Of a stretch of 64,000 bases of DNA, positions 576-62,826 are shown piece by piece. The notes below the pieces were generated by a model, which was not told the DNA's origin, made no database searches, and was given only the letters and a program-made list of their open reading frames with translations. Position numbers and translations under genes: made by a program. Each line of letters starts with the position of its first letter. Positions within the stretch are counted from its first letter, which is position 1. Source of the DNA: Lytechinus variegatus (Eukaryota); contig NC_054742.1 in NCBI RefSeq assembly GCF_018143015.1, positions 73,513,736-73,577,735 of the forward strand, in the 5' to 3' direction.

Positions 576-700
576 CTTATAGATCTTGGTCTCCAGTTCT
601 CCAGCGGAGTCTTCCTCTTGGTGGGTCAGCATGTAGTTATCTGTCTTCCTGATATCCTTCATGGATGGATTGGATACACGCTTGGCATTCTTGGATTTGT
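576..700 (-). CDS. KIF23: KIF23 C-terminal exon: ..KNAKRVSNPSMKDIRKTDNYMLTHQEEDSAGELETKIYK (5' boundary unresolved)
   Basis: Aligns to human [35 protein letters not shown]. Donor gtaagg. No acceptor could be found that is in frame with the upstream exon, so an intervening exon between 700 and 1100 may have been missed. Confidence 0.6.
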
Positions 701-1103
701 TGGGCTGCAGGACCGTTTCTGATCGATCAAAACAAGAAATGCACGCAATGTTATATCACCAAGCACAGGAAACAGCAACTGGAGATAAAGCCGCAACAAT
801 ACCAAAGACGCTACAAAGGGAAAACTGGACAGTCAATAGATTGTGGAATGATATGCTTGGGTAGGGTACCCACAAAGCGCTGGGTAGCTACAAGTATATA
901 ACTATACTGTCATTCGAGCTATCCATATTCAAATCTTTCATGTAAAATAATGCTTTTTTCTTTTCATTGGGACTTGCTTCTCCAGGCACTACTGAAGAAT
1001 TCTGAATTATATGTGACTGGATTTCTGGAAAGTACTTACACCCATTTACAATTGACTTTCTTGAATTTCATTTTGAGATATTAGCAATTATCTCCCCACT
1101 TAC

Positions 1104-1383
1104 CTGTGTCCAGGGTCTCAACGGGTTGGTGATCGATCCAGACGCTGTTGGAGGCTGACCGCGATCGACGATGTCGCAGCCTGACCGGTGGTGGGTTGGT
1201 CTTCCTCTGCGGGGGAGGTGACTTGGATCGATTGAAGCTCTCAGCCAGCACCTCCTTGGCTGCTTTTTTGGCGCTCTCCTCCTCCTCGTGGCCCTGGACG
1301 ATCTCCTTCAGCTGGCGGAGCTTCTCCTCCCGGACCCACATCTCTGTCTGCATCTTCAGCTCCGTCTGCCGTACCCTCTTAGC
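1104..1383 (-). CDS. KIF23: KIF23 tail exon: [65 protein letters not shown]
   Basis: Aligns to human [23 protein letters not shown] .. [22 protein letters not shown] (the Aurora-B phospho-site region). Acceptor tgtag, donor gtaagt. Anchored on the ORF track. Confidence 0.85.
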
Positions 1384-2505
1384 CTACAATAGACATAATT
1401 ATAATATAGGGGGTTAATTGCCTATTCGTCTACTGCCAACATCCTCTCACCACACGGTCTACTTTCATTTAGTCTAATGCCATTCCCGACCATCAACATT
1501 TCTTCTAACAACCATTTGATCCAATCATCACTTTGTCTAATCACTATTTCATCTCATAACCAAATGGTCTAATATCCATTTCATTTTCATTCATATTGCA
1601 CAATTAACACTTTAGTCCAATCAGACCAAATGGTATATGGACTAAATGGCAATTGGACCAACTGGTTATTAGATGGAATGGCATCTTGGGCCCATTCAAA
1701 ACTTTGATAAAGGTTCAATAATGTGAGATATATTCCGGTATCCTTTTACACTCAATCTTCAGAAAGTGCAGTGCTCTTTGAATCTTCTTCATGTCACCCA
1801 TTAATTTTTGAAGAATATTTTTTAATTTTTTATTTGAAAATAGTCAGCATGCTCTCAGCAAAGCTAAGTACTTTTTAAAACAGGCCATGTAAACACTTAC
1901 TTAGTACGTGTAAACACACTTTAGTGACTGCATATCAGAATGCTACAAACAATGTTATATCCTGAAATTTTAGCCTATTCCATGATTAAAAAAACAATTA
2001 CTGAAACAGAAAAAAAAATACTTATTTTAATTTCGATCAGGTGATCAAAATAAACTTTAATGTTTATCAAAAAAATACATCCACTTTTAGGACAGACACA
2101 TTCATACAATCTGATAATAAATAAGCACCATAAACCTGGCTCTCCAATGAATTACTACAAAACACTAAAAAAAACATTTAAATAATTCAAGTACCTCTAT
2201 CTTATTGAAGTCCAAGAAATCAAGGTTACTTTTTACATTATTATAGACCTATATTGAGTATGTTTCCGCCTAGTTTATGTGAACCACACATGAAATATTA
2301 AAACAGGCAGAATATAAATTACGCTGAAAATCGCTGCCAGAGGTAAGCTCACAGGGGGTCTGTAGTACTTTCTCAAAAGAAAAACAAAGCCTAACATGTG
2401 TATTCCAGTAAAATTTCATGCTTATCTTGGGAATCACTGAGCATTGGATTTACCTTATTCTATCAAAATTATTTGACATATTATTATACAAAGCACTCTG
2501 GTGAA

Positions 2506-2692
2506 GGACCTGGGCCTCATTTCACTTAAAAATGCTATGATTGCAACTCTTGCTGGAATGTCAACTTTCATTGGAAGAGCCAATCAGGAAGCAGAATTTT
2601 CACTGTTGTCATGGTAGTTGACATTCCAGCTGATTTGCAGTCATATCAACTTTTTATGAAATGGGGCCCTGGAGGGGTTTTTCACGGAGTGT
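2506..2692. mobile_element. MITE family 7 (GGACCTGGGCCTCATTTCAC ... GTGAAATGGGGCCCTGG)
   Basis: TIR-bounded. A unit of similar architecture at 61361..61515 carries an internal TTGCCATTATGGCAA palindrome. Confidence 0.45.
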
Positions 2693-2838
2693 TAAGTATG
2701 ACTTTTAGTCATGCTTGAATGCCGACAAGCATTCTGTGTACCAATCTTAATGATTGGTATGAAGTAGTGCACATCCTAACTGCGAATGTAAGTGCGACTT
2801 TTAATCACATTTAAAATCTTTGTGAAACATTCCCTTGG
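2682..2838. mobile_element. MITE family 2 copy
   Basis: See the 9204 copy. Shared internal AAGTGCGACT motif. Confidence 0.5.
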
Positions 2839-2946
2839 TACACTGTACATTTTCTTTTTCATTCAAAAATAGAGATGTCTTACAGATATATCAGTACATT
2901 TACTCTCATATCTTCCATTGAAAATTGATGACCCGCTTATACTCAC

Positions 2947-3057
2947 ACATTCCTTTTCCCATTTATCTCTCTGGTTACTGACGGCTCCCTTGAGGGCTTG
3001 TTTCAGACGAGCTCTTTCTTGCGTTTCCATCTGAATCATTTTTTCCTTCTCAGAAAG
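2947..3057 (-). CDS. KIF23: KIF23 coiled-coil exon: LSEKEKMIQMETQERARLKQALKGAVSNQRDKWEKEC
   Basis: The RDKWEKEC segment aligns to human TMKWEKECE. Acceptor atttcag, donor gtgagtat. Confidence 0.75.
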
Positions 3058-3276
3058 CTGAAATATGTAAATTAAAAAGAAATTATATTTATTGGGTACA
3101 TATGAAAGTGATCTTTGTCTTTTTTTGTAAGTTTCTTCTGGAATATGAAATTCTAGAGAGATTCAAGCTGTAGTGAATACATGTTGGTGGGATGCTTTTC
3201 TTCTGATTTGGCATTCCCGGATGAATAAAGGTTAAAGGGGAATCCAGCCTTAGCTAAAAAAACAAAATGCTCTTAC

Positions 3277-3485
3277 CTCTGTAGCCATCTCTCGTTTGTC
3301 TTTCTCGTACATGTTGTGAGTGCGTTGCAGCATGGCGTTGTCCTGTTCCAGGGAACGGATGCGCTTCTCGTTTCGTTCATTTTCCCGCGTCTTAGAGCTC
3401 AGTTTGGCTGATAGCTCTGCGACGGTGGTGCGGAGGTGATCCAACTCGTGATCTCTTTCAACCAGCATTGCCCGAAAAGCGCCTT
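3277..3485 (-). CDS. KIF23: KIF23 coiled-coil exon: QGAFRAMLVERDHELDHLRTTVAELSAKLSSKTRENERNEKRIRSLEQDNAMLQRTHNMYEKDKREMATE
   Basis: Heptad-like coiled coil. Aligns to human NKQSNAFKALLQEFDNAV.. through the central stalk. Acceptor acacag, donor gtaaga. Anchored on the ORF track. Confidence 0.75.
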
Positions 3486-4275
3486 CTGTGTGTAAAACGA
3501 GACAATAAGAGGATGTTGGTAAGTAGAGTAAGTAAGAGCCTTAGACAAAATATACTCATATTTTTTATTGCTTCATTCATATTTCATACTTGCAGTTTTG
3601 TTACATCTTGAAAAGTTAGAAAAAAAGAAATTATAACTTAAGGTTCTAATATAATTGTGAGAAAATTAGGAAACTTTTTGCAGTATTCTTAATTCCATAG
3701 TTTTGCTTGGCTAATCAAAGGTTTGAAATTTAATATCATTGGATAGTTTCATATGGGCAATTCCACAGGTTGGTCCAAATCATGTAATGTGAGTAACCGA
3801 CACATTCCAAAGATATGCCAGGAGCATAATAGAATTCCCAAGTCTTGTTTTTATACAAAGGATAGTCAGACTGTGTACTTTGTTGTGATAAGGAGATGTT
3901 TAGTTCCTATCAATAATAATGGAGTTACAGCTCCAAGTATGAGTCAAGGTGTCTCAAATGTAACGTGAGTAACCGTGGAATAGCCCATATGTCAAAAAAA
4001 CTATATTATGACCCTGCTCTAATATTGACATTATGATATATACCCTAAACTCAGTTAAAAGTAATATACAGTCAAAACTGTCATTATTGCCACCCAGGAA
4101 AAACAGAATAGCGGCCATCGGCGACAGGCGGCCTCTTTGACAAGGTTATATAACACAGACACACATTTATTTTCAAATGAGAGACAATTTGGTTGCCATT
4201 AGAACAGATTTTCACTACAGACAGGTTGCCGATAAGCAAGTTTGTACATCGATGGACAAGAGTTTTTTCCCTTAC

Positions 4276-4378
4276 GTTTTCTTGCAAGTTCATCCTCCAT
4301 GGTTCTCCTCCTTTTCTGTCTCTCCGCCAAAAAGGCAATGAGATTAGAGAGGGTGTCCTCGTCCGAAGGATCGGAAAT
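4276..4378 (-). CDS. KIF23: KIF23 exon: ISDPSDEDTLSNLIAFLAERQKRRRTMEDELARK
   Basis: Aligns to human [31 protein letters not shown]. Acceptor ttttag, donor gtaagg. Confidence 0.75.
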
Positions 4379-5020
4379 CTAAAATGGGACATATGATAAT
4401 AATAATATGCAACATTTATCATACTTTATACAATGTAGATTATTATTCTAAGCACTGCACTCCCTTACTCTGGCAACATCCTAGCTATAGGCCTGATCTC
4501 ACTGGTTTTACGAAATTTAAGGGTAATTAGTGTCCATATTCTTTGTATGCTGGTTAAGGTAATGTATGTTATTGTTGCTCTTTTTTTCTGTAGGAATTTG
4601 ATCTGTTAATAGTTCTCCTGTGTTGAATGCATGCTCTTATGGAATATTTACATCCATTCATTAGTTTAATTATCAATAATTGCTAAGTTTAATTTCATGA
4701 AAGTATATGCTGGGTCATTTTCCTGGTGCACTCTAGGTTAATGTTTTATAGTCAATTTCTCCAGGTACCCCTTATGGGGTGCCTGGATACTCCTTTTTTT
4801 CCTCCTCCTTTTCAGTTCTTTCTCAACTGCACTATGGGAATGACCTTTTAAAGTTTTATACTCTTTATTGTGTAATTTTTGTGATTCTTCTGATTTGTAA
4901 TTAATTTTCACTTCAGTTTGTACTGCTAGACATGTTCTTTTCAATAAAATCCATTTTATCTATCTTGTCTATCTCATGTTTTAAAAAAATGAAATATTCA
5001 AAAATAAAAACCAAACAAAC

Positions 5021-5118
5021 CTGTAAGAGTGGAAACGGTGGTCCAAGGGAGAGAAGTGGGGGTGGAGGTGGCATATCACCACCGTTCTCCTCAAGAAGTT
5101 TCTTGTATTCTTCATTGG
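5021..5118 (-). CDS. KIF23: KIF23 exon: ANEEYKKLLEENGGDMPPPPPLLSLGPPFPLLQ
   Basis: Proline-rich neck-to-stalk region comparable to human PLVTDVVLQSFPPLPS. Acceptor cttgcag, donor gtttgt. In frame with both flanking exons. Confidence 0.65.
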
Positions 5119-5691
5119 CTGCAAGAAAAATAGAAAAAGCAATATTTGATGAGAATCAAAGATAATTTGACCATCGATGGGGGCTGACTTGTCAGCTAAA
5201 CAAATTCCCAATCATCTTATTCATGTCAACAATTTTATTTTGAGTAAAACACCTGAAGCAGATGAAAGACCTGCATGTTACTATATCCCTTCTCTTACCA
5301 TAACTGATAATATAAACTCTCTTATGGAGTGAAACCCTCAAACTACTCATAATTTTTATACTTTATGATCGTATATTTTCATATCTTACAATCATACATG
5401 ATTATTCTATTTGGTGTACATTCATCTATTCAATATCATAAATTAAATTTTACGTTTAGAAGATTTGTCTACTTCAAAAAAAAAAAAAGTTGAAGTATTA
5501 ACTTTTGATTTTGAGGGAATCTTTATTTGTGTATCAGCACATAAATTATTTTTCTATATCATTGTGACAGATGTCCACAGATTCATGTCAACTAAACTTT
5601 TTTGACAATAAAATCTTCTCTGATGTTATTTATTACCATCACATAATTCTGTTGAGAAGTGTTTGAGGCAGTGTTAACATAATCCAGGGGT

Positions 5692-5806
5692 ATGAGGAAT
5701 TGCAAATGAAAAGAGCCGAAGCATAACGAAAAAAGTGAAATTAAGCTGAAAATTAAAGGGCAAAATAACTGAATTCAGCCTTTTAAAAAGCTGAACTCTC
5801 ACACCC
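5692..5806. mobile_element. MITE family 1 copy
   Basis: AGGGGTATGAG..(AAGCTGAAA)n..CTCTCACACCCCT. Confidence 0.55.
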
Positions 5807-6066
5807 CTAATACTAATAATCTATAATAAACTAGTACTCCACTTCAGAATCAAACAAAATATCAGATACCCATAAACTGGGTGACTTTGGACACAACAGA
5901 GAGGGGCGTTGTTTCGTTTAATGTAGTAATGTTGGTGATAGTTACATTTATATAAATGTATATATAAATGTTTCTATCACCACCATTACTATTAAACGAA
6001 ACACCACCTCTCTCTGTTGTGTCCAAAGTCACCCCAGTTTGAGGTAATTTAAATGTGTGCACTCAC

Positions 6067-6163
6067 CCTTTCTCCTGCCTGGGGTAAGACCGATGTCAAA
6101 TCTGACCTCCGTTGGTCTCGCTACTTGTACTTCCTGCGTGATCTCTGCAAACCTCATGACATG
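6067..6163 (-). CDS. KIF23: KIF23 exon: HVMRFAEITQEVQVARPTEVRFDIGLTPGRRK
   Basis: Aligns to human [34 protein letters not shown]. Donor AAGG|GTGAGT. The acceptor is uncertain by a few nt. Confidence 0.75.
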
Positions 6164-6864
6164 CTTTTTGAAGCAAAACAAAACCAAAGCTTCATCAGTA
6201 ATCAACCATTCATATTAATTGTAGACTTGTACATTCTTCAAGCCCGACTTACACATTTTGGGCTAACGTTGTATTTCCTGGACACAGAAGATCGCAGTCA
6301 AGGTTAATACCCAGAAGCCTTTTGTCCGAGCTTGGCAACTGGAATTTTTTATCAAACAATCGCAACTGACCGCAACTAAATCTAAATGAGCAGAGACGAG
6401 TGGTCATGCCAGTGGCAATGAGCACATGCAAGGACACAAACAAGCAACAGCCATCATCTTACGTAGGGCAACACGATGTTACTGCTCAATATACCTTGCT
6501 TAAGCTCGCATCACCTCGCTATGCCAAGTGCATGTTGAGTTAATAATCAAAAGTGGAATCGCAACCTAACGTTTTGCTGTGTAGTATGCTGCGTTTGACA
6601 GCGTGTTGCTGCTTATGGTTGACACAGCAATACAAAAGTGTAAGCCAGGCTTAAAAGGGGTTGTTCATATATATCAAATTAATCATTATCAATATCAAAT
6701 TATGCTTGGTATTGAACTAGGAGGTATTTTGGAGGGCTCTTTTGTAACGAATACGGAAAACCTGGAGAGGAGGGGTGGGGGTGGATAAAAATCAGACAAT
6801 TATTTGGTTTGTATTCACAAATACACTCTTGTTAAGCAATATTGAGGATGGCACTAATACTTAC

Positions 6865-6984
6865 AGTGGTTTCATCATAGTCCTTTGCACTGGGGTTGAC
6901 ACACACCACCATACGGACTTTACCCTCACCGTCAAAGTAGTTCTTAAAGAGATGAGTGAGTTTGGACGTTCTGTAAGGGACCAT
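6865..6984 (-). CDS. KIF23: KIF23 exon (end of motor domain): [40 protein letters not shown]
   Basis: Aligns to human [39 protein letters not shown]. Acceptor cacag, donor gtaagt. Confidence 0.85.
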
Positions 6985-7354
6985 CTGTGTAGAAGAAACA
7001 ACATTTCATACCAGTGAGCAGCAAATGGCAATAGATTAACTCTGTTTCCATTCAATCTTTGTGTTTTGTTATTAAGAGGTAACAGTGAATTACGGAATGT
7101 TGAAAGTCCTTCAAATCAAAATTAATTGCAATTAATTACAAATTTGCAATAGATCGCAAGTTTCCTTTTTCTATTAACAGGTATAAATTGATTTGCTTTG
7201 GTTGAAAATAGACCTATCATTGGTGCATTTGCATCAAAAATTTGCAATTGATAGAAAAAAATTTCGTGCAAAACCTACTTATACTCTCAAGCTTGATCAA
7301 CTCCGACTCAGGTCAAGAGGAGATCCATCAGATTCTGAAACAGTTTCAACTGAC

Positions 7355-7537
7355 CTTGTTGGCCCCTTCTGACTGGTTCTCTCTCAATGTCTCAATGCAT
7401 GTCCTGAGTGTCATCAACGACGCATTGATGCTACCGGCTTCCTTGAGTCTGTCCCCCGTGTTGTTGGTTCGGTTGGTCCTTTCACTTCCTGCTAGGTCAA
7501 CCAGAGACAGCTGGCTGATGGCAATCTGGTCCTTGTC
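7355..7537 (-). CDS. KIF23: KIF23 exon (switch II): [61 protein letters not shown]
   Basis: Contains the LVDLAGSER motif. Aligns to human [61 protein letters not shown]. Boundaries were anchored on the ORF track. Confidence 0.9.
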
Positions 7538-7602
7538 CTGAACAATAGTAATTATCATAAAATGGTTTACTGAACTGTTGCTGAAGCAGCCCCAGTAGTA
7601 CA

Positions 7603-8382
7603 CACAATTGCCTTAACCCTATCTAGGCCGGGTATTTTGGGAGTTCATATGGCGGGGGGGGGGGCCTCCCAGGCCCCCCCCTAAGATCTCGGCCGTCGAG
7701 CGTGCGATCGCGCCGAAAATTGGCACGCGGGTTGCCTGGGGCATAATCTACAAGATTGTATAGAAATTTATTTCATGCAAATCACTATTAAGTGATTATG
7801 CTAATTTATGAGTAATTAGTATGCGAAATCATACTTTTTCCTCTAACTCCCTAAATAAAGCTCCAAATGTACTAATTTTTGGTATAGAAACTCTTTGAGG
7901 TGTCCTTAGCAAGTGTACATGAAAAAAATTGTGCTATCAAATCATTTTCTTATATATTATATTGTTTTTTCAATTTCTTATGTATTTCTTTGTTTTTTGG
8001 ACCTTTTGTTTTTCATTGTTTTTTCAATGAAATTTGTTGGGGACTCTTCTGTGATCATAAAAAGCATAAAATTAATACATATAGACTTGCAAAACTAAAA
8101 ATAATCATACATTTATGAATTTTGGTTGGAAACACAATTTGCATTGACTTTGTACACAAAATCACGTTTTTGAGCAATTTTCGGTCTGACATGCACTTAC
8201 ATAATGTTGCGTAATTTCGGAACCACGTACCCGAGTGACGCAAAATTGGTCTCAAAAGTTGCGCAAGACTTGAAAGTAAAAAGTCAGCGAGCGGCGCGGT
8301 CAAAAAATTTCGCACGGCGAAAATATTGCGCGATTCGTTGAGGGGGGGCCTCCGAGGCCCCCCCCGGCCTAGATAGGGTTAA
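7603..8382. mobile_element. Non-autonomous piggyBac-like DNA transposon (about 772 bp) flanked by a TTAA target-site duplication, in a KIF23 intron
   Basis: TTAA at 7603-7606 and at 8379-8382. Terminal inverted repeats CCCTATCTAGGCCGG.. and ..CCGGCCTAGATAGGG, each with a subterminal G-rich run and GGCCTCC(C/G)AGGCCCCCCC. There is no long ORF inside. Confidence 0.65.
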
Positions 8383-8569
8383 GCATGTTTAGCACGGCCT
8401 TTGATTCAGCAATCAAACTTCCCTGATTTCAGCCATTTCTATCCAATTTCCCGAATTTTTTCTGAGTGGAAAAAGAAAAAAGATTGCCCCTGATGGGCTG
8501 GGAACCCTGTCAATCATTTGATGAATTTTCATGATATCTTAAAAAACATTAAAACTTACTCAGGAACAT

Positions 8570-8712
8570 TTCCATTCACATCAAATGCCAAACTGGGGCC
8601 CGTACCACAAAGCTTAGCAATCATCGTAGTACATTCTCCTATGGTTGATTGCATTGTCTACAATGTACAATTACTCATGAAAGTTAAGCATACGATTACT
8701 GGCTGGCTAACT
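8570..8712. mobile_element. MITE family 3 (GGGCCCGTACCACAAAGCTTAGCAATCATCGTAG ... CATACGATTACTGGCTGGCTAACTTTGTG)
   Basis: TIR-bounded. A second copy at 37005..37137 shares about 80 percent identity. Confidence 0.55.
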
Positions 8713-8754
8713 TTGTGTTTATAATAAAGGACCCCACTCTGTTGACTGTCTTAC

Positions 8755-8876
8755 CTGTATGACCTCCTGGCCCAGTGAGTCTAGGGGTGCCTGGACCAGT
8801 CTGATATTGAAGACACTGTGGCTACGACTTGACTCTGTGTTCAGCTGGGTGTGAGCCACCTTACGCCTGGCCTGAC
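8755..8876 (-). CDS. KIF23: KIF23 exon (switch I): [41 protein letters not shown]
   Basis: Contains the NxxSSRSH motif. Aligns to human [39 protein letters not shown]. Acceptor acaacag, donor gtaaga. Confidence 0.85.
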
Positions 8877-9203
8877 CTGTTGTGTTAACAGTCAAAGTCA
8901 AAGGTCATTTATTTTGGATGGCTTTCAGAATACTTATTTTGCTCCTCCTTATCTTCTCAGCTGTGAATATGCTATTGATTCACTTGATTAATAATTGGCA
9001 GAATGTCATTAAGTGAGAGCCAAAAACATGACACCAAGCAACTTTCCACATTCAGCTGGCATTGTCCCTTGACTTGCCCGAGAAGCAAAACTCTATCATC
9101 CTTCTATAAATAGTTTGATTCATTGACATGTAGGTAACCTGCATGAGAAGACCTTCCCTTAGTCAAATATTTGCCAGAGTCAGATAAATTCTGTAGACCA
9201 TAG

Positions 9204-9408
9204 GGCTGTTTCACAAAGATTTAAGTATGACTGAATTGTATTTAAATGCCACTCGGTACATGACGTGCAACACGCAATCATTGCGCAATACTGCGCGTCC
9301 TCTAGGCATGATCTGACCAATGCGGTCATGCCTTTTTATATCGCAGGCAACTAGGCATTTAAGTGCGACTCTAAGTTATACTTAAATCATGGTGAAACAC
9401 CCCCTCCC
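9204..9408. mobile_element. MITE family 2 (TIR GTTTCACAAAGATTTAAGTATGAC ... TTAAATCATGGTGAAAC)
   Basis: Imperfect TIRs. A second copy sits at 2682..2838 (TTTCACGGAGTGTTAAGTATGACTTTTAG ... AATCTTTGTGAAAC). Confidence 0.55.
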
Positions 9409-9645
9409 CCCTCTCCTAGGTAAAATTTCTCCTCTAAGTGGAACAGATTCCTGTGGAGTCCCAAAATATTTGACTTATGCAGAGTTTCCCTTTACTTCTA
9501 CATGTATCATCCAACATATTCCTTGCCATTTTTTTTAACTTGCTAAGCTGATGATGCCAAATGAAGTAAAATCCAATATTGCATCACAAGATACCAAATT
9601 GAACGATTTTATTAAAATAGAAGGGAGTTTTATTTGGATTGTTAC

Positions 9646-9758
9646 CTTTGAGGAAGACCTTATACGCATCATCTGTTGACTTGACCTCTACCTCAGTACA
9701 CATCGCAACATACATGTTATGATTGCAATCTTCTCTCAGATTTCTTGGCGTCAAACCC
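9646..9758 (-). CDS. KIF23: KIF23 exon: [37 protein letters not shown]
   Basis: Aligns to human [33 protein letters not shown]. Acceptor ttttcag, donor gtaaca. Confidence 0.85.
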
Positions 9759-12437
9759 CTGAAAATGAATGAAATAGGAAAAAAAATATATGGTTTAAGA
9801 TTTTTTATTTTCAGAGGGGACATCACAATGCAAATGGGCATGAGAACAATGAAAGAGAAAGTAGACATTCATGTACAATTGAAAGGTACATAGAGTATGG
9901 CATTCATCTTCTCTAAATTTATGACAGATTTTAACACACACAAATAAAGCATAATTCTGAATTGTTTTTGTCTTCAGGTAGCATCCACAACTAGCCTTAT
10001 TTAACCAATTCTGATTCTTATCATTGACTTACAAATTGACCAAATTTACAAGACCTTTTCTTGTATTAAAAATTGAATACCGGTACTGCATGCTAAGCAA
10101 CATACTATTCAATACACGTTTAACGGTACTGAATTACTTTTAGTCAAACTTGAATTGCATATATAGTATGTAGATGTGCCCAACTTTACCCGAACTAATA
10201 CTGACTACTGAAGTTCTATTACTATCAATTTTTACCAACAAGAGATATGTAATATATTGCAAAGAGACAATAAATTGGATAATTTGTGTACAAGGTATGC
10301 TTTGCTTAGCTGTATTAAAAAAAAATGTTTTCAATATCATTTCCTCAAAGTTATTTGAAAGGCTATCAGACATGAACTAAAATCTTCATAATCTAAAGCC
10401 CCCCATCACACGTATTCCAAATCAAGCAGAATTGGCTGGAATGAAAGGACTATTGTTTGACCACCAGTTGGTCATTTAAATCTACTTCGAACACCGTTCG
10501 AAAATACCCCTTCGAATGTTTTGAACATGACCAAAACCCTCGGGATGGCTAAAAAGAAATGACAAAAATATTTTGAATGCACTCGAAATGCAGTCAGAAT
10601 ATTTAGAATGCGCCTAGAATGTCCAAGAGTGTAGCACAAATTATCAATCTGACTCCATTGCGGTTCATTTTGACTAGTGTATGATGATTCACCTGGTCAA
10701 TTTACTGAATTTCAACTCCAGTTTGGTGAATTCAGAAGTTTAGAAATTTCTAGATTTTTAAATATTTTTTTCGTTCCAGCTGATTAGAAATGTGTGATAG
10801 GAGCTTAAGGTAAATAAAAGCTGAAAAAAGCAATATCACCTAAACACAATTATGAACAAGCCTTGAAATTCCTTAAAACAAAGAGCATGTTTTGGGGTTT
10901 TTTTTCATGTAGCTTTCTACATGTACATTCATACCAAAATAAGTGCAAAACTGCATTTACATGCAAAATGACTTATGCCTCAGATGATCTTTGTAGGTTT
11001 GCATGGTGGAGTTTATCATGTGGAGAAGGTTTACGGTTCACCATGTGTAATATAAAGAAGGGAAGGAAATACAGGCAGAAAAATTGATATGGAAAGACGA
11101 GAAAGGATGAAAAGGGGAAATTAGAAGTATTCTCTTTCGACAAATGCCTCTTTGTTAATATGGATATAAAATTTAACAGTGAATAAGCTTTGAAATATAA
11201 ACAAAAAGTAACTGTATGCACTTCAGTCACAGGGAAAATAAGAGGACAGCCTCAAGTGGAAGGGAAAATAAATTAATATAATAATTAATCATATTTTCAA
11301 TAAAATAGTGTGTAGGCTTCTACTAACCCTGAATGAATTTTTTTTGACAGGCTTGAGAAAGTCCACGTGGGTGGATGAGAGCTTGTCAAAAATATTATCA
11401 AGGTTGGTAGAAACTTACATTTTTTGCTATGCTACAGAACTCTAATACGTCGGAACGAAATCTCTAAAGCGATTTACAGATAAATCAAACAGTGAGTAAA
11501 ATTTGTTCATGCAAATTTGTTTAAAGCATTAACATGAATGAAAGAAGAGTGATACTGAAACCATTTTAATAACACCGTTTTCAATCAATGCAGTTAGTTG
11601 TGAAGTGGCCCTAATTAAAAGAACTAAACAGAAAAGCAAAGCAGGTTACATAAAACCAGCTATAAAATAAACATGAAATAAAGAAACCAAACAGAAAACT
11701 CAATGACATACATTTCATCTCTGTTCCAACGATTCCTGGTGTAAGCAACAAGGAATTGAAGAAAAAAAAAGAGAATATAAAATCATAAAGTAAATACACA
11801 TAATGAATGAGCATGAGGGATGTGTAACTTCATAGTTTTTATTTCATAGGGTTAACTGTATGGTAAAGTGATGTGAACTTTAAAGCTGGGTTAACATGAA
11901 ATGAGTAACAAAATGATTAATGGTGGAATCTGACTTTTATACAATGATTGTGACATGTATGTCAACACACAGTTATGACGATGTCATATGATCACAATGT
12001 CATTTGAACCCCATGATTTAATGGTGAATAAATCTATTTTTGTTAATATTCCAAAACTGTTATGCATTGAAATGACCACCAAATGTGCCGAAAAATGAGT
12101 GTATGAGATTCAACAGTGTCCCAATAATACCTGCCAGAATTTAGAGATGGACAGCCAAGCCCAAAGGTCGGGGTTCAGAGGGCCGACTGAGTCTCCGAGA
12201 AGGTTCAGGGGCAGAGCCCCAGGCAGGGATCAAGAAGGAAGTTCCTGCTGAATATCTTGTATTTTAGCAACTTGGCCTCTAAAAAGGACTGGGCTATTAA
12301 TTTTTTTGCCATTTTGAAAGAAAATCAGGTCAGTTGGCAGGTCTGGGGTATTCATCGATCTAATTACTGAACTTGAGATCAGAGTTTAAACCAAACCCAA
12401 GATTAGAATACCGGCATTTATGTTTTAAGATACTCAC

Positions 12438-12602
12438 TTTGAATGGAGTGAGTAGGGAACCTCTTCTAGGAGGTCAAAGATCTGATTGTTGTAGATCTCA
12501 ACGTAGGAAACATAGATGGCATAGTTGTTATCCTCGTCCACGGTGCTGAGGCAAGTAGGGTCCGGTACCCGTACAAAGTTGTCCAAGTCCGGAAAAGCTT
12601 TC
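12438..12602 (-). CDS. KIF23: KIF23 exon: KAFPDLDNFVRVPDPTCLSTVDEDNNYAIYVSYVEIYNNQIFDLLEEVPYSLHS
   Basis: Aligns to human [28 protein letters not shown]. Acceptor tcaccag, donor gtgagta. Confidence 0.85.
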
Positions 12603-13150
12603 CTGGTGATAAAAAAAAAAGGTTCACAACTGATAAAGACCTGCAAACATCAAATATCCTTCTAGTGGAGCGTTGTGGCCCAGTTTCTTGGACATTAAAA
12701 TTGTGCAAACTGGTATCTTGAGAGAAAATTCAGCCTCAAGAATAACTCTACTTGGGTGTGTTATGATTTGCTCAACCAGAATACAAAAATGGATCATTGG
12801 GTACATTAATAAAAAACAATATTTATAATTGACACACTAAAATATGCATCCAAATCCATACTCACAAAATCCCAAAATCTGAATATTCAATATTTAGGGA
12901 AATTAAAATTTCAAAAACTGGACGGTTCAGTTAAAAACTGAATGGTTGGCAACACTGCTTGGGATTCACAAAGCTCTACCATCTCCTCCTCGTTCACTGA
13001 GCATGATATCTAGAAAAAATACACTTTCCAAAATATATAACTACCAATCAATATGAAACCTCAAAAACCCAATTCAAGTTTCATTGAATGTGGATCATTA
13101 TTATTCAAATGTAACTGGCTTGAAGCCATGCAACATTGCCTCTAGCATAT

Positions 13151-13372
13151 GGGGGCATTGTGATCTAGTGGTTACGACTTGCATTTCAATCAGAGGGACG
13201 TGGATTCAAATCCCAGCCAGGGTGTGTTTTCCTTCAGCAAGAACTTTACCCACTGAAAGGCAGCTCGAGCTAAAGCTGGAGTAAAAATAATAGTGCTCCT
13301 CAGAATAAATAATAATAAAAATAGATTTCTAGAAAGATGGCGCTATATAAATGCCTATGATAATTTTCATCA
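13151..13372 (+). mobile_element. tRNA-derived SINE, full-length copy (family A)
   Basis: tRNA-like head GTGATCTAGTGGTTA..GGATTCAAATCCCAGCC. Body with GGCAGCTCGAGCTAAAGC. Tail GATGGCGCTATATAAATGCCTAT. The same unit recurs at 58332, 50085, 49205 (-), 60962 (-), 43805 and 54620 (-). Confidence 0.75.
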
Positions 13373-13454
13373 TTATATTAAATGCATTTCATAAGTGAAA
13401 TTACGTCTCAGATAAGGGGCACACTTTGTCATTAAAGATTGCCTCCTTGTAAAC

Positions 13455-13612
13455 CTTAACACAGGGGTGTGAGCAAGAACAAATTAAAATAGCTGAAATT
13501 ACAAAAGCTCCTATACTTTTGTACAGACAAAAAACAAAGAATGCTGAAATAAGCTGACAATTAAGAACAAATATAGCTGAAATCAGCTAAAAAGCTGAGC
13601 TCTCACACCCCT
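13455..13612. mobile_element. MITE family 1 (TIR CAGGGGTGTGAG ... CTCACACCCCTG, internal AGCTGAAA repeats)
   Basis: Perfect 12-bp TIRs. Other copies at 5692..5806 and a partial copy at 340..460. Confidence 0.65.
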
Positions 13613-13733
13613 GACTTTGTGAAACTCCAAACCGGTCAACTAATATTCAATTCAAAAGTGCGTCATAATGGATATTTTCATAATGTAGTCTAAAAAAAAG
13701 TGATTTGACTTAGGAGTACTTCACAGTACTAAC

Positions 13734-13903
13734 TTTGGTTTTCTGCTAGGTGTGCTGGGCGCACGAGCGCTTTGTGGTGTCCTGGGAGTGCGTGGGGTAC
13801 GTGGTGCTACCGGCGGAGGCATCAACTCCTTCTTCTGTCTCTCCAACATAGCATCGGCCTCCGTCTGTACATCCATGCCATTCACCCTGTCCGGCTTGAA
13901 AAC
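13734..13903 (-). CDS. KIF23: KIF23 exon: VFKPDRVNGMDVQTEADAMLERQKKELMPPPVAPRTP..SRKPK (kinesin-6 loop insertion)
   Basis: Aligns to human [39 protein letters not shown]. Acceptor tgtag. Donor gttagt, phase 2, chosen so that the next exon is in frame. Confidence 0.7.
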
Positions 13904-14461
13904 CTACACAAGATGAACAATGGTTTTGAGTCAAGATTACCAAAATGGTCAATGAAGAAATTGACATTTTCAAGTTTGTTTACCGCATTTACTGTTGTAA
14001 TATTAATTTTGAATAAGGGATATCCTAGTCTTACTTCTGACAAGTTAATTTTCTGTAAACACTTATCCAATTGCAATTTACTATTTCACCAGATATGTTC
14101 ATGTATGAATTTGTGACTACACCAAAAATGTCAATTTTCTTCAGTTGTGCAAGGGTTTGTAGAAGAGTGGAACTTGCTTATAAGTCGAATCTCTTGGGAC
14201 TGGAGTAGGGATAGTAATTTTCTGCAATATCAAAACAGAAAATCTGGTTTGATTATCTACTTTTCATGTGAAAAATTCATTAAAGTTACCTTACCTTTGC
14301 AAAACATTCATACTTTCATGCCAAAATGGAATTTCCATTTTAGATCAAGTTTGATAGGAATTACAGCTTTTCAGATATAGAAAATTCACTGTCCTTACTG
14401 GAGGATTGATAAACTCTAAAAATCTGTTTGATGGTGGTTGGTGTCAACGATGATAACTTAC

Positions 14462-14597
14462 ATATTTCCTGGCCTGTAGGTCACCGAGGCTGTTGAAAAG
14501 GACATCAAGACACCTCGGCAGGACTCCTCCATCTGTGGGTGTCCCCTGCATGGTGTACGTCTTACCCGATCCCGTCACTCCATACATGAACAGCAAA
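14462..14597 (-). CDS. KIF23: KIF23 exon with the kinesin P-loop: [46 protein letters not shown]
   Basis: The GxxGSGKT(Y/H)TM kinesin N1 motif. Aligns to human [45 protein letters not shown]. Acceptor ttttcag, donor gtaagtt. Confidence 0.85.
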
Positions 14598-15584
14598 GCT
14601 GAAAATGAAATCAGGATGAAAATGGATAAATACTGATAACACCAAGTTACATTGAGAATGTATTCATCCTCATATAAAAAAAAATAGTAATTGCAGGCCA
14701 CCTTGGATGAATGATTCCCCCCACTATACTTTCTAAAACCTGGTAAAGTTGTTTATTAAATTTACGTTATCTGGTAACAGCCAATAATCTGGTATGATAT
14801 TGTCAAGAAATCAAAGTAATGATATTCATCTAAGAGCGTTGAACAAAGAGATAAAATCACTATATTTGTACATGATATTCCACATATATAAAAATAAAAT
14901 TAATTCTACTGTCCATTGTTTCTATTAGTTTGAGAGCGAAGGGCCCTGTAAAATATTATATATTTGTAAAGGTTAGATGGTTCAAAACAAATCTGTAAAT
15001 GAATCTTCAAAACATAAGAAAATTATGAATATCAGAATGTGAATGCTATATGTGAATCATACTACATATAAATGATCAATTTTAACAAGTTTAACATTCA
15101 CAAAAGCAATAATATCCAATAAAGATTCCAATTTATCAAACATTTTTTACAACTAAAATATCACTTTATTGTTTTGTAATGGGTTTTAAGCAGAAAGTAA
15201 TTCCACATTTTAGTCTGTTCTTGTTAGTTGGTAATCTAAGAAGATAACTTACAATTTTGCCATGGAGAGGTCTTAATAATATTATCTGTAAAGCTTTGTG
15301 CGATATTTTAACACTAATAACATATTGGTAATATTTGTCTAAAAAACAAATATTACCAATATATGCTGTCTACATGCTTCTGCAGTATTTCTAAAAAAAA
15401 TTGAAGATTTAAATAAGATTAGACCAAGAATTCTATCACTTTGCTTCAAGATTTTAAAAACATGATTTTAACAGTACACAAAATTACATATGGATATAAT
15501 AAAAGATCACTCATGGTAAGAAATGTCATATAAATTGATGAATAAAGTATGGTCAAAAAGGAAAACGTGGAATTACAAATAGGT

Positions 15585-18699: not shown

Positions 18700-19800
18700 C
18701 CCCCCCCCCTGAAATACGGGACAAAAAGAAAGCAAGACAGAAACAAAGAAGGAAAGAAGAAAGAAAGAACGAAAGAAAGAAGGACGGAAAAGAAAGAAAG
18801 AATAAGAGAAAGGAAGGAAGCAAGGAAGGAAAGGGAGGAAAAGAGAATAAAAAAGGAAGGAAGTAAGTAAAAAAGAAAAGGTAAAGAAAGGATAGATGTG
18901 AAGGAAGGAAAAAAGAAAGAACTAAGGAAGGAAAGAAAGGAATAAAGAAGGAACAAAAATAAGAAAGAAAAAAAAAAAGAAAGAAAGAAAGAAAGAAAAG
19001 AAAAGAAAAAGGAAATGAAGGAAAGAAATGAAGCAAGCAATACAGAAAGAACAAATCCAGAAAGTAGTGAAGGAAAGAAAGAAGAAGCAATAAAAAAAGA
19101 AAGGGTTAATGGAGAGATGGAAAGAAGGACAAAAGAAAGAAAGAGAGGAAGGATTGAAAGAAGGAAGAAAGGAAAGGTAAAATTATAAATAGAAGGAAAG
19201 AAATAAATGAAGGAAGGGAAGGAAAGACGCAAGCAATATAAAAAAAAGAAAAAATAAAATAGATGAAAGGAAGAAAAAAAGAAAGACTGAGAGACAAAGA
19301 AAGAAGAAATAAAAAAGATAAATAAATGAAGGAAAGAAAAGGGTAAAAGGAAGGAAAGGAAGAAGAGATGAATATAGGATGGATGGACTCAAGAATTAAA
19401 GAAAGAAAAACATCAAAAAGAAAGAAAGGAAGGAAGAAAGTAACGAAGAATGAAGGAAAGAAAAGGGTAAAAGGAAGAAAAGGAGAAGTGATGAATATAG
19501 GATGGATGGACTCAAGAATTAAAGAAAGAAAAACATCAAAAAGAAAGAAAGGAAGGAAGGAGGGAAGAAAGGAAGGAAGGAAGGAAAGAAAGAAAGAAAG
19601 AAAGAAAGAAAAAGAGAGAAAAAAAGAAATAGAGAAAAATATTTTTTAAAAGGATAGAAAGAATGAAAGAACGAATTAAAGAAAAAAAGAAAGACATTAA
19701 CCAAAAAAATGAAAGAAGAGAGGGAAGAAACAAAGAAAGATTGAAAAGAAAGAAGGAAAGAAAGATAGGAAGAAAACAGAGGAAGAAAGCTAAAACTATC
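18700..19800. repeat. About 1.1 kb polypurine/polypyrimidine microsatellite (AAGG, GAAA and GGAA units) in the intergenic region, with an internal 75-bp direct duplication (19368..19445 matching 19487..19565)
   Basis: Nearly pure R/Y strand asymmetry over more than 1 kb. The long purine or pyrimidine ORFs the track shows on both strands are artifacts. Smaller related tracts sit at 17460..17625 and 18100..18300. Confidence 0.9.
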
Positions 19801-24384: not shown

Positions 24385-25083
24385 ATGAGTTACCTGTCAA
24401 ACCCTCTGTTGACGGGTTCATTGTCATCCGGTCTAACAGCAACAAAGCGAAAGGCAAGGGATGACGGTAGCAGTCAAGCGTCGGTCCCAAGCAAGCAGGC
24501 GTCCACTGGAATGTCCCTCCAAAACAGTAGCCTCCTCCTTGGAAGCTCCCTACTTGGTGGCGTCTCCAAGAAAGATGGCAAGTCCCAATTCGGGCTGGGC
24601 ATGAAGTCATCTATCCTGGGCACGAAGTCCCCACTGATTGAAAACAAGCTGCTCTCTTCTGCAACAGCCAATACTGGTTTGCATAGTAAGCTCCAGGGCA
24701 GCTCTGGAAGATCCCTTCTAGCAGGTGGAAGCTTGCTATCGATGGGCAGCTCTCTCTCATCATCATCCTCTTTATCAGCCTCAGGGTACGGCAGCATCCT
24801 GAAGGGTTCCCAGAAGACCCGCAGCTTGAGCCGTAGCAACAGCACCCAAGCTGAGGAGTCCAAGACCAAGAAGATCAAAGCCCAGCATCTTCCAGAGCAG
24901 TTGAAGGAGGACAATATCATTGACCCAACCCTTACCACATGTGAGCTGCCAGACTACGATTTCTCACGACAGCTTCCAGTTGCAAAGCCAGCTGTGCAGG
25001 AATATGATCACCAGTTTGAGAAGCTGGACGTGGCCAAAACTCTGACAACAAAGCCAGGGGAAAATTACTCAACAAAATTAAAG
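24385..25083 (+). CDS. TEP1: TEP1 first coding exon: [30 protein letters not shown].. (Ser-rich, lineage-specific N-terminus)
   Basis: ATG at 24385 in an acceptable Kozak context (tcaagATGa). The 236-aa ORF ends at a donor AAG|GTAGAG. A likely acceptor near 24313 (tcttaaatgcag) sits upstream of the ATG, which suggests a noncoding exon further 5'. Confidence 0.5.
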
Positions 25084-45040: not shown

Positions 45041-45867
45041 GTATGTTTTTGAAAAGAAGTTATTTATTTCTCATAGAGATAGGATATTTGGTAAAAAGAC
45101 TCCTACAGGAACAACTAGGGATTATTTTTCATCCAATACTCCATCAAGTATGTTTCGACAAGAACCTGTTGATTTTCTCCTAGAATTTGTTTATCTACTA
45201 AGTCTCTTTTATTATCAGGGTGACAATTTGAAAAACACAGGATTTCAGTTCTGAATTTTATTTTTGGAAATCAATTCTTTCATACAATAATTTCTTTTAT
45301 TCCAATATGTGTAGATGAGAAAGATTTTCCTTGCAACAATTGTCTGACCAGTAATATTTTACCTGTAACTTACTTTAAAAGTCTTATCAGCTCTGTAGAG
45401 AGTGAGCAGCGCGATCAAAAAACTTTGCGAAATGGCGTAGTGATGAAATTTGTCGAGGGGGGGTCAAATTTACCCCCCCCCCCAGTTTAATAAGGGTTAA
45501 AGTTAACTTGTATCCAATACAAAAAATGCATGTTAAGTCTGTCACTGGACTTTCTTTGACCTAAGAGTATTTCATTAAAAGTAGAAAGTTTTTTTTTTAA
45601 GTACCAGCAGCTATGACTTTAGTATTGAATTGTATACTGCCCCAGACCTTTCTGCGTAATCTGCAACAGATATTTCTGATTATTTGTAAGATAAATACTT
45701 AACGAGTCCTTAATTAGAAAAATGTGCAATAAAGGGCACCATATCTGATCAAGAGAACATTTTGAATTATCATAAAGAATCTTTCATAAAGAATTGGTCA
45801 GTGAACATTGATATAATGGTCAGGACATTTTTGCAAGATGCAAATTTTGGAATGATAATTCAATGTC

Positions 45868-48053: not shown

Positions 48054-48236
48054 GGTGAGATCCTTGATGAAGTAGTTCATGAGAGAGCACAGCATGACAT
48101 GTTCCTCCAGTCACAGCTAGCAACCTTTACCGGTAGAAAGAACCAGGTCAAGCAGTGTTTGGATATCATCAAGAAACCTGAGACAGGGTTGTTGATGGTC
48201 ACAGGAAAGCAGGGGTGCGGCAAGACGGCTTTACTG
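48054..48236 (+). CDS. TEP1: TEP1 NACHT Walker A exon: GEILDEVVHERAQHDMFLQSQLATFTGRKNQVKQCLDIIKKPETGLLMVTGKQGCGKTALL
   Basis: P-loop GKQGCGKT, compare human GQSGQGKTAFLASLV. Acceptor ttttttttcaag, donor CTG|GTAAGA. Confidence 0.9.
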
Positions 48237-49080
48237 GTAAGATATGATAAAGGAGATAATAATAATAGTGTATAATTGTAGAGCGCACACACCGTCAGTA
48301 GACACTCATGGCGCTAGCCGAGCAACAGCTCTCTTTTACAATGGAAAAATTAGATTTTATAGAAATTTATATAAATACTACACAAGAACCATGACTAAGT
48401 ACATAGATGGGAGGGATGATTGAGAGAGCTAGTGGTCTTACCAGTAGGAAGAACCAGGTCAAGCAGTGTTTGGATATCCTCAAGAAACCTGAGACAGGGA
48501 TGCTATTGGTTAAAGGCAAGCAGGGGTGGGGCAAGACGGCTTTACTGGTAAGATATGATAAGAGAGATGGGAGGGGGAGGAGGGGGGGCAGTGAGATAGC
48601 CAGCGACCTTTACCGTAGGTAGAACCCGTTCAAACAGTGCTTAGATGTCATCAAGAAACCTGAGACAAGGATGCTATTGGTTACAGGCAAGCAAGCAGGG
48701 GTGCAGCAAGACATCCTTACTGGTAAGATATGATAAAAAAAGATTGGAGGGTAAGGGGTAGGGGTTGAGATAGCTAGCGACCTTCACTGGTAAGAAGAAT
48801 CAGTTCAAACAGTATTTGAATGCTGTCAAGAAAGCTGAGTCAGGGATACTGATGGTTACTGGCAAGCAGGAGTGTGGCAAGATGGCTTTACTGGTAAAAT
48901 GTGATAAGAGAGATGGGAGGGATGAAGGAGGGAGGGGGCAGTGAGATAGCTAGCGACACTGATGGTTACAGGCAAGCAGGGGTGCGGCAAGACAGCATTA
49001 GTTGTAAGATATGGTGAAAGGGTCAGAGAGATGCTAGCAAAGCGAAGCTTAGATGTAGGAGGGGGGGGGGGCGTTGATAT
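48237..49080. repeat. Four degenerate tandem copies (unit about 185 bp) of the 3' half of the NACHT Walker A exon plus its donor and the first 60 nt of the intron
   Basis: Copies at about 48395, 48590, 48780 and 48940. Each keeps ..KKPETG.LLV.GKQG.GK.A.L then GTAAGATATGATAA. The third and fourth copies keep readable P-loops (ECGKMAL, GCGKTAL) and GTAAG donors. The second is degenerate (QAGVQQD). Confidence 0.85.
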
Positions 49081-60565: not shown

Positions 60566-60819
60566 GGTCAACACGCTGAAGGGTCACAGGGGGCTCGTCA
60601 GCGGTGCATCTCCGACTCCAAGGGGGTCAACCTGGCTTCCTGTGGCTGGGATTGCCGGTCCTGATCTGGGACGGCCGCAGCGGCAAGCAGACCTCGGACA
60701 TCACCGAGCCACGCCCCATCAGCTGTCTGTCCTACCATCCAGATGGGAAGCTTCTCGTCACCGGGTCGTGGGATGCCACGCTGAAGATCTGGGATACCTT
60801 CAACAAGAAGAGGGTGGCT
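60566..60819 (+). CDS. TEP1: TEP1 WD40 exon, frame-disrupted as assembled: RVNTLKGHRGLVSG / CISDSKGVNLASCGWDCRS / LIWDGRSGKQTSDITEPRPISCLSYHPDGKLLVTGSWDATLKIWDTFNKKRVA
   Basis: The three segments lie in three different frames, seen both in the track ORFs 60543.. and 60604.. and by direct translation. Together they align to human RVLQTKAHQYQITGCCLSPDCRLLATVCLGGCLKLWDTVRGQLAFQHTYPKSLNCVAFHPEGQVIATGSWAGSISFFQVDGLKV. The acceptor is in frame with the upstream exon (frame A). The donor GCT|GTAAGT is in frame with the downstream exon (frame B). Confidence 0.75.
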
Positions 60820-61133
60820 GTAAGTACACATTGACATTGGATTGTAGTAATTCTGATAACAATGCAACTTGTTGCACCAACGAATCCACACTGCAGAGTG
60901 CTCAAGTTCCCAACTGTAGCCAGCTATCTTCTTGGTGCACAGGTGTTTCACTTTAAGCATATTCTGCAATGTACCCCTTTACTACAATCGGGTCGAGTGC
61001 AGCACAATGTGGACAATTTTTTTGCAGAAGAAAATAAAGGTACCCATTTTCTACACCGTTTACCGAAGTCTTCAGGTAGACCACTCACATGGCATTATTT
61101 GAAATAACCAATTTATGTTTGGACACTTTGCAG

Positions 61134-61253
61134 ATTCTGCGCGGTCACCGTTCTTCCGTCCGTGCCGTGACCTATTCACCAACTGGTCGTCACATTGCAT
61201 CTGCGTCACTAGATGGCGCTGTCAAACTCTGGTCGGCAGACACCGGAACACAG
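61134..61253 (+). CDS. TEP1: TEP1 WD40 exon: ILRGHRSSVRAVTYSPTGRHIASASLDGAVKLWSADTGTQ
   Basis: Canonical WD40 (GH .. WD-like). Acceptor tttgcag, donor gttagt. Confidence 0.9.
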
Positions 61254-62561: not shown

Positions 62562-62826
62562 GGTTTGGTCTGGCAACCTCGGTAAACAGCTGGCTACCTT
62601 CAAGGGCAAGGACCAGTCAGCATCCACCCAAGCCACCTTCAGCCCGTACGGCGAGTACGTTGCCATGGGATACCATTCCGGAGAGGTCAAGGTCATCGAA
62701 GTTGCCAGCAAGCGCGAGGTCTTTGCCTCGGTGCTAAGGGAGTCGCGGGTCAAAGGAATCGCCTGGTTGGACGATAGCAAGGATGGTTTGACCTTCTTGG
62801 TGGGTTACGAGAGCGGACATGCTGTG
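62562..62826 (+). CDS. TEP1: TEP1 WD40 exon: VWSGNLGKQLATFKGKDQSASTQATFSPYGEYVAMGYHSGEVKVIEVASKREVFASVLRESRVKGIAWLDDSKDGLTFLVGYESGHAV
   Basis: Aligns to human VWSGSLGRPRGHLGS..SPDGDRVAVGYRADGIRIYKI. Acceptor tcttcag, donor gtaagt. Confidence 0.9.

Follow-up and report, generated by a model that had tools for sequence, protein, structure and literature searches.

Two single-G deficits in one WD40 exon of an otherwise intact sea-urchin TEP1 gene are most likely an assembly error

How can an exon that codes for two WD40 repeats do so only when it is read in three frames, one after the other? The question is raised by a single exon in a stretch of DNA of 64,000 nucleotides, hereafter the window, in which the composition (36.6% GC, CpG observed/expected 0.49) and the presence of spliced genes are those of eukaryotic DNA. 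The exon, here called exon C, belongs to a gene for TEP1, the telomerase/vault protein component 1. Its frame may have been broken by errors in the assembly or by real deletions, or the sequence may be correct and the frame restored by splicing or by recoding. The features on which the answer depends are the following, the exons on either side being designated A, B and D.

59398-59493: exon A of TEP1, its exon boundaries readable in the sequence
59832-59956, + strand: exon B, upstream of exon C, ELKSF...VEQGF followed by two spare nucleotides, 'ag'
60566-60819, + strand: exon C of TEP1, 254 nt as assembled (256 nt in Lytechinus pictus), coding for two WD40 repeats of the second beta-propeller
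60566-60604, + strand: piece 1 of exon C, frame 0, (R)VNTLKGHRGLVSG
60603-60604, + strand: site 1, GG where L. pictus has GGG, change from frame 0 to frame 2
60605-60658, + strand: piece 2 of exon C, frame 2, CISDSKGVNLASCGWDCR
60657-60658, + strand: site 2, GG where L. pictus has GGG, change from frame 2 to frame 1
60659-60819, + strand: piece 3 of exon C, frame 1, (V)LIWDGRSGKQ...WDATLKIWDTFNKKRVA
60662-60664, + strand: TGA that closes frame 2 just past site 2, within the string UCC-UGA-U
61134-61253, + strand: exon D, downstream of exon C, ILRGHRSS...DTGTQ, starting in phase 0

Exon C is bounded by an acceptor AG at 60564-65 (ctctAG/g) and a donor GTAAGT at 60820 (gct/GTaagt). The 2 nt at the end of exon B fix frame 0 as the frame of entry into exon C, and the phase-0 start of exon D fixes frame 1 as that of exit. 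The 254 nt as assembled, less one, come to 253, which is not a multiple of three, and the frame is therefore broken. In the middle of the exon, frame 2 alone makes sense. The translations are RVNTLKGHRGLVSG for frame 0, CISDSKGVNLASCGWDCR(S) followed by the TGA for frame 2, and VLIWDGRSGKQ...KKRVA for frame 1, confirming that exon C has to be read in frames 0, 2 and 1, in this order, to yield two WD40 repeats. An earlier note on this DNA had described the same arrangement, and its coordinates, frames and split of the open reading frames are reproduced here exactly. Its statement that exon B is in frame with the first piece and exon D with the last is borne out by the exon phases.

The frame pattern of exon C exceeds chance by four independent measures. 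The concatenation of the three frames scores 67.1 bits against the Pfam WD40 profile, with two repeats, whereas the frame-0 read-through has no score and the best single-frame alternative attains 41.6 bits with one repeat. The third codon position, recognisable by its high GC, lies at pos%3=2 in piece 1 (0.92), at pos%3=1 in piece 2 (0.82) and at pos%3=0 in piece 3 (0.83), a composition signal that is independent of homology, and a codon-usage frame plot trained on the other exons agrees on the order 0, 2, 1. Piece 2 in frame 2 scores 41 against a distant orthologue (ungapped BLOSUM62), a value reached by 3 of 100,000 shuffles, while its other frames score between -9 and -24.

The gene to which exon C belongs was modelled as a chain from splice sites and codon usage, which was then corrected against the L. 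pictus homologue.

24385-63567, + strand: TEP1 gene, with its ATG at 24385 and at least 36 exons in the window, continuing past the 3' end of the window

All introns of the model are GT-AG except one GC-AG intron (gaagag/GCaagt), which follows the exon at 54201-54299 on the + strand (MKLLVSKREANLPLFLKLACEELRVFGVFEE), the site lying within 54201-54305. The gene is TEP1, as judged by its domain architecture and by its near-identity to the L. pictus protein annotated as 'telomerase protein component 1-like' (XP_063952437.1, isoform X2, and XP_063952436.1; gene at GCA_037042905.1 CM073228.1:11,422,019-11,478,258). When one G is added at 60604/05 and another at 60658/59, the model gives 2016 stop-free codons over 36 exons. 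Over 2013 aligned residues, spanning residues 1-2014, this repaired model shares 96.6% identity with XP_063952437.1, and its coding nucleotides are 95.8% identical to those of L. pictus. The window thereby covers about 2014 of the 2542 aa of the L. pictus protein, with collinear exon order. A tblastn search of XP_063952437.1 against the window returned one match, in one frame per exon, except in exon C. Only residues 1438-1469 and 1710-1740 lack a match: the former correspond to a short exon whose model translation agrees with XP_063952437.1 by eye, and the latter are pieces 1 and 2 of exon C.

Among the domains of the model, TROVE (PF05731) is found as one uninterrupted stretch at 369 bits, over positions 20-442 of the 442 in the profile, and a single TROVE exon alone also matches fragments of PF05731. 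DUF5920 and DUF4062 (61 bits) are also present, as is a complete NACHT at 34 bits (positions 3-165 of 167), together with AAA_16, APAF1_C and HTH_NWD1. With exon C repaired, the two TEP1-specific propeller families are detected, Beta-prop_TEP1_2nd at 134.3 bits (cut-off 89) and Beta-prop_TEP1_C at 71.6 bits (cut-off 32). The order of TROVE, DUF4062 (TIR-like), the NACHT/STAND NTPase and several WD40 propellers, the TEP1-specific Pfam families among them, is shared with vertebrate TEP1. A difference from the vertebrate protein is that Pfam found no N-terminal TEP1 repeats in the window model. The biology of the family has been described (PMC2193651; 10.64898/2026.05.01.722283). Sequence searches of the PDB returned generic WD40 structures and irrelevant AspA matches, with no structure of TEP1, and an exact-sequence look-up of the broken, repaired and exon D open reading frames found no identical entry in the sequence collection searched. 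Head-to-head with TEP1 lies a kinesin gene of the KIF23/MKLP1 type (576-14598, - strand; Kinesin motor 268 bits, MKLP1_Arf_bdg 87 bits), which is in frame across all of its predicted exons.

Comparison with the genomic DNA of L. pictus places the lesion at base resolution. At site 1 the window reads CAGCGG-TGCATC where L. pictus reads CAGCGGGTGCATC, and at site 2 it reads TGCCGG-TCCTGA where L. pictus reads TGCCGGGTCCTGA. At both sites one G is gone from the GGG run of a CGGGT pentamer, on the same strand and 53 nt apart. Eleven substitutions and exactly two single-G gaps separate exon C from its L. pictus counterpart, and nowhere else in 5,241 aligned coding nucleotides does an indel break the frame; the sole other coding indel is one of 3 nt, in frame, at 24531. 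L. pictus uses the same acceptor and donor for exon C, and its protein is identical to the repaired exon at 85 of 86 residues. In contrast to the window, it has GGG at both sites and reads GLVSGCISDS...WDCRVLIWD in an uninterrupted frame. The two 1-bp losses claimed by the earlier note, which had also named orthologous loci as a check, are thus matched in L. pictus by exactly one extra base per site and an intact frame. Its description of the breakpoint contexts held in part: the breakpoints it named lie within 1-3 nt of the true ones, but it singled out a T and a C, whereas what is missing in each case is a G from a run that L. pictus has as GGG.

The aligned L. pictus coding sequence contains 119 runs of three or more G or C, of which two are contracted in the window, both being the exon C sites. 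Exon C, the exon richest in such runs, holds 12 of the 119 and is the GC-richest exon of the gene model (GC 0.62, GC3 0.85). The pentamer CGGGT on this strand accounts for 6 of the 119, and the limitation of the contraction to two such sites suggests that a context-dependent process may have acted on them.

At the level of the whole locus, exons are about 96% identical between the window and L. pictus and introns about 80-90%, which, with a dS of 0.146, indicates that L. pictus is a different species from that of the window. Judged by this dS and by the list of species in the genus, the source is another Lytechinus, probably L. variegatus. A more distant point of comparison came from a word-index protein search, whose matches were for the most part generic WD40 proteins; one match, 80% identical to exon D, led to an ENA metagenome contig (ERZ27296354 k141_11646). 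In this contig 159 residues align without gaps to exons A and B and the three-frame exon C, although exon C itself is only 38% identical. Since the contig reads piece 2 as exon, piece 2 is coding in a relative; that it might be intronic, a possibility which the earlier note had held open against its own claim, is not so, the region being read across in a single exon. The contig also differs in gene structure: its positions 1393-1877 correspond to 59398-60819 of the window, with exons A, B and C fused in one uninterrupted exon. The window introns 59494-59831 and 59957-60565 are absent from it, pointing to intron gain or loss between the lineages.

Apart from exon C, the locus bears the marks of a functional, constrained gene. 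Over 1744 codons compared with L. pictus TEP1, dS is 0.146, dN 0.0156 and dN/dS 0.107. In its repaired frames exon C shows 10 synonymous differences and 1 non-synonymous (dN/dS 0.03), pieces 1 and 2 contributing 2 + 2 synonymous and no non-synonymous changes, and the exons 3' of the lesion are still constrained, with a dN/dS of 0.17. No further frameshift or stop occurs elsewhere in the 2016 codons of the repaired model. A long-standing pseudogene is excluded by this lack of other lesions together with the dN/dS of 0.107. Given the constraint on exon C and on the exons that follow, the gene can have been inactivated, if at all, only very recently when measured against the species split.

As assembled, the TEP1 frame is not uninterrupted, since exon C carries two 1-nt deficits. 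Translation of the canonical transcript would be correct for 1725 residues, continue out of frame for 151 more and then meet a stop.

62583-62585, + strand: first in-frame stop of the canonical transcript as assembled, codon 1877

Because this stop precedes further exon junctions, nonsense-mediated decay (NMD) is expected for the canonical transcript. Taken at face value, the sequence would mean that about a quarter of the 2542-aa TEP1 is lost.

The most likely cause of the lesion is a pair of homopolymer-length miscalls in the assembly consensus, an explanation which we consider probable. In an otherwise intact and constrained TEP1, the assembly would have dropped one G from each of two GGG runs, turning CGGGT into CGGT. 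The two missing Gs would account for the frame steps from 0 to 2 to 1 and for the end of the canonical transcript at codon 1877. The real exon C of the animal would then be 256 nt long and read GLVSG-CISDS...WDCR-VLIWD, as in L. pictus. In favour of this explanation, the change at each site is a single-base change of length inside a homopolymer run (GGG to GG), in a gene that is otherwise intact. Apparent frameshifts are known to arise from indels in long-read consensus sequences and from the collapse of haplotypes into a mosaic consensus (PMC12007338; PMC8445201). The present case resembles such errors in its single-base losses from short G runs within an intact, conserved gene. It differs from them in that the window shows neither a general deletion bias nor a depletion of the k-mer, and in that the runs are just 3 nt long.

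These differences can be put in numbers. Single-base differences from L. pictus leave the window shorter in 56 cases and longer in 46, so that no window-wide deletion bias is seen, real interspecies indels in the introns dominating this tally; for runs of three or more G or C, 6 are shorter and 4 longer in the window. A systematic collapse of CGGGT to CGGT was rejected as a cause, CGGGT/ACCCG being observed 30 times in the window with 29 expected. Among the CGGGT sites of the coding sequence 7 of 11 are intact, and three other CGGGT sites in the coding sequence are intact, including one at 60762 within exon C itself. Two random errors would both fall in exon C with a chance of about 1% ((12/119)^2), and a local cause must therefore be assumed. 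No duplicate of exon C that could have served as a gene-conversion donor was found within the window. While the exact lesion, the identity of the gene and the intact state of the remaining locus are established, we infer an artefact rather than an allele, the lesion being most likely an assembly error and at most a very recent broken allele, in either case an ordinary event. These were the two explanations that the earlier note had proposed, and the intact L. pictus gene, with one more G per site, supports them.

A second reading, less probable although a serious one, is that the deletions are real, and that the sequenced haplotype carries a very recent loss-of-function allele of TEP1 produced by two G-run slippage deletions. 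A variant carried by the whole species instead of by one haplotype would be less likely. The absence of both a general excess of single-base deletions and a collapse of CGGGT, as reported above, lends this reading some weight, since the baseline quality of the consensus thereby looks good. Slippage in G runs is, moreover, a natural mutational mechanism as well, and polymorphism is high in sea urchins. One species is called 'highly heterozygous' in the title of a report (PMC9557091). A null allele could also be tolerated and would come as no surprise, since mice lacking TEP1 are viable, the knockout altering only vault RNA stability (PMC2193651). Against real deletions stands the occurrence of two independent frameshifts that lie 53 nt apart while the remainder of the 2016 codons is free of lesions; given the first, a second frameshift in a coding sequence of 6 kb would land in this 254-nt exon with a chance of only about 4%. 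The strong constraint in exon C and downstream would furthermore require the inactivation to be extremely recent when set against a dS of 0.146. Were the deletions real, translation of the canonical mRNA would end at codon 1877, and the message would probably be degraded by NMD.

The DUF4062 domain of TEP1 is reportedly a TIR-like NADase. It is a tentative and rather doubtful proposition that the window records a naturally segregating null allele in a wild sea urchin, a natural knockout of a vault/telomerase NADase-STAND protein. Such a tolerated natural null in an experimental sea-urchin model would, in view of the NADase, be of some use. The main consequences concern annotation and quality control and not new biology. 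Annotated as assembled, the locus would pass for a TEP1 that is truncated or 'low-quality', unless the gene models made a detour around the lesion by way of spurious cryptic introns, at the cost of a propeller blade.

Such detours bear on a third and improbable reading, in which nothing is wrong with the sequence and splicing restores a TEP1 that is in frame but shorter. The earlier note had stated that the locus cannot encode an intact TEP1 by ordinary splicing. The canonical frame is indeed broken, but routes that preserve an open reading frame do exist, at the cost of WD40 residues. They comprise an alternative acceptor at 60580-81, giving an exon at 60582-60819 that is in frame 1 throughout (frame 1 is open from 60580), and a cryptic intron at either 60604-60742 or 60626-60680; all three leave the frame open between exons B and D. 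The cryptic donors are nevertheless weak (0.0 and -2.1), and the alternative acceptor (cacgctgaAG/g) is without a polypyrimidine tract. The putative cryptic introns are 61% GC and coding-like. The products would lose a WD40 repeat, with conserved residues deleted or replaced, and would fall from 67.1 to 41.6 bits against Pfam; compared with the orthologue they score 141 or 93, against 205. Both L. pictus and the ENA contig, moreover, read the full stretch as one continuous exon.

Recoding, by two programmed -1 ribosomal frameshifts or by the site-specific insertion of a G into the transcript at CGG/T, would make an animal nuclear gene depend on recoding and is highly improbable: the two sites share their pentamer context and the UCC-UGA-U at 60659-65 resembles an antizyme +1 site, but neither site has an X_XXY_YYZ slippery heptamer (C AGC GGT GCA; TGC CGG TCC), the RNA fold of exon C is ordinary (z = -1.22, with 25 of 200 shuffles folding as well), a +1 shift at UCC-UGA enters frame 0 (PDLGRPQ...) and not the conserved frame 1, making the resemblance a coincidence, and relatives lack the shift, the frame being ordinary and continuous in L. 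pictus and in the ENA contig. Insertional editing is not known to occur in any nuclear mRNA of an animal. The judgement of the earlier note that a programmed frameshift is very unlikely agrees with the lack of a recoding signal in exon C.

Several repeat features accompany the two genes in the window. Between KIF23 and TEP1, at 18725-19775, lies a purine-rich (AAAG)n microsatellite of about 1 kb with embedded 123-nt repeats, and a spike of GC skew and AT skew at 18-20 kb is due to this microsatellite. The intron that follows the TEP1 P-loop exon (48054-48236; ...VTGKQGCGKTALL) contains, at 48437-49003 on the + strand, four partial and diverged copies of the 3' half of that exon. Their identities are 81%, 58% (in a copy that contains a stop), 72% and 93% (a 15-aa fragment), and the array is reported by TRF with a period of 175 in 3 copies. 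It also aligns to the L. pictus locus and is therefore older than the species split. An interspersed repeat with the core GGGTCGAGTGCAGCACAATGTGGA and an ORF-like stretch, …GSNPNHGV…, occurs in TEP1 introns of both species, at the following positions.

60970-61030, + strand: copy of the GGGTCGAGTGCAGCACAATGTGGA repeat in the window
58376-58456, + strand: copy of the GGGTCGAGTGCAGCACAATGTGGA repeat in the window
50094-50243, - strand: copy of the GGGTCGAGTGCAGCACAATGTGGA repeat in the window
45420-45484, - strand: copy of the GGGTCGAGTGCAGCACAATGTGGA repeat in the L. pictus locus
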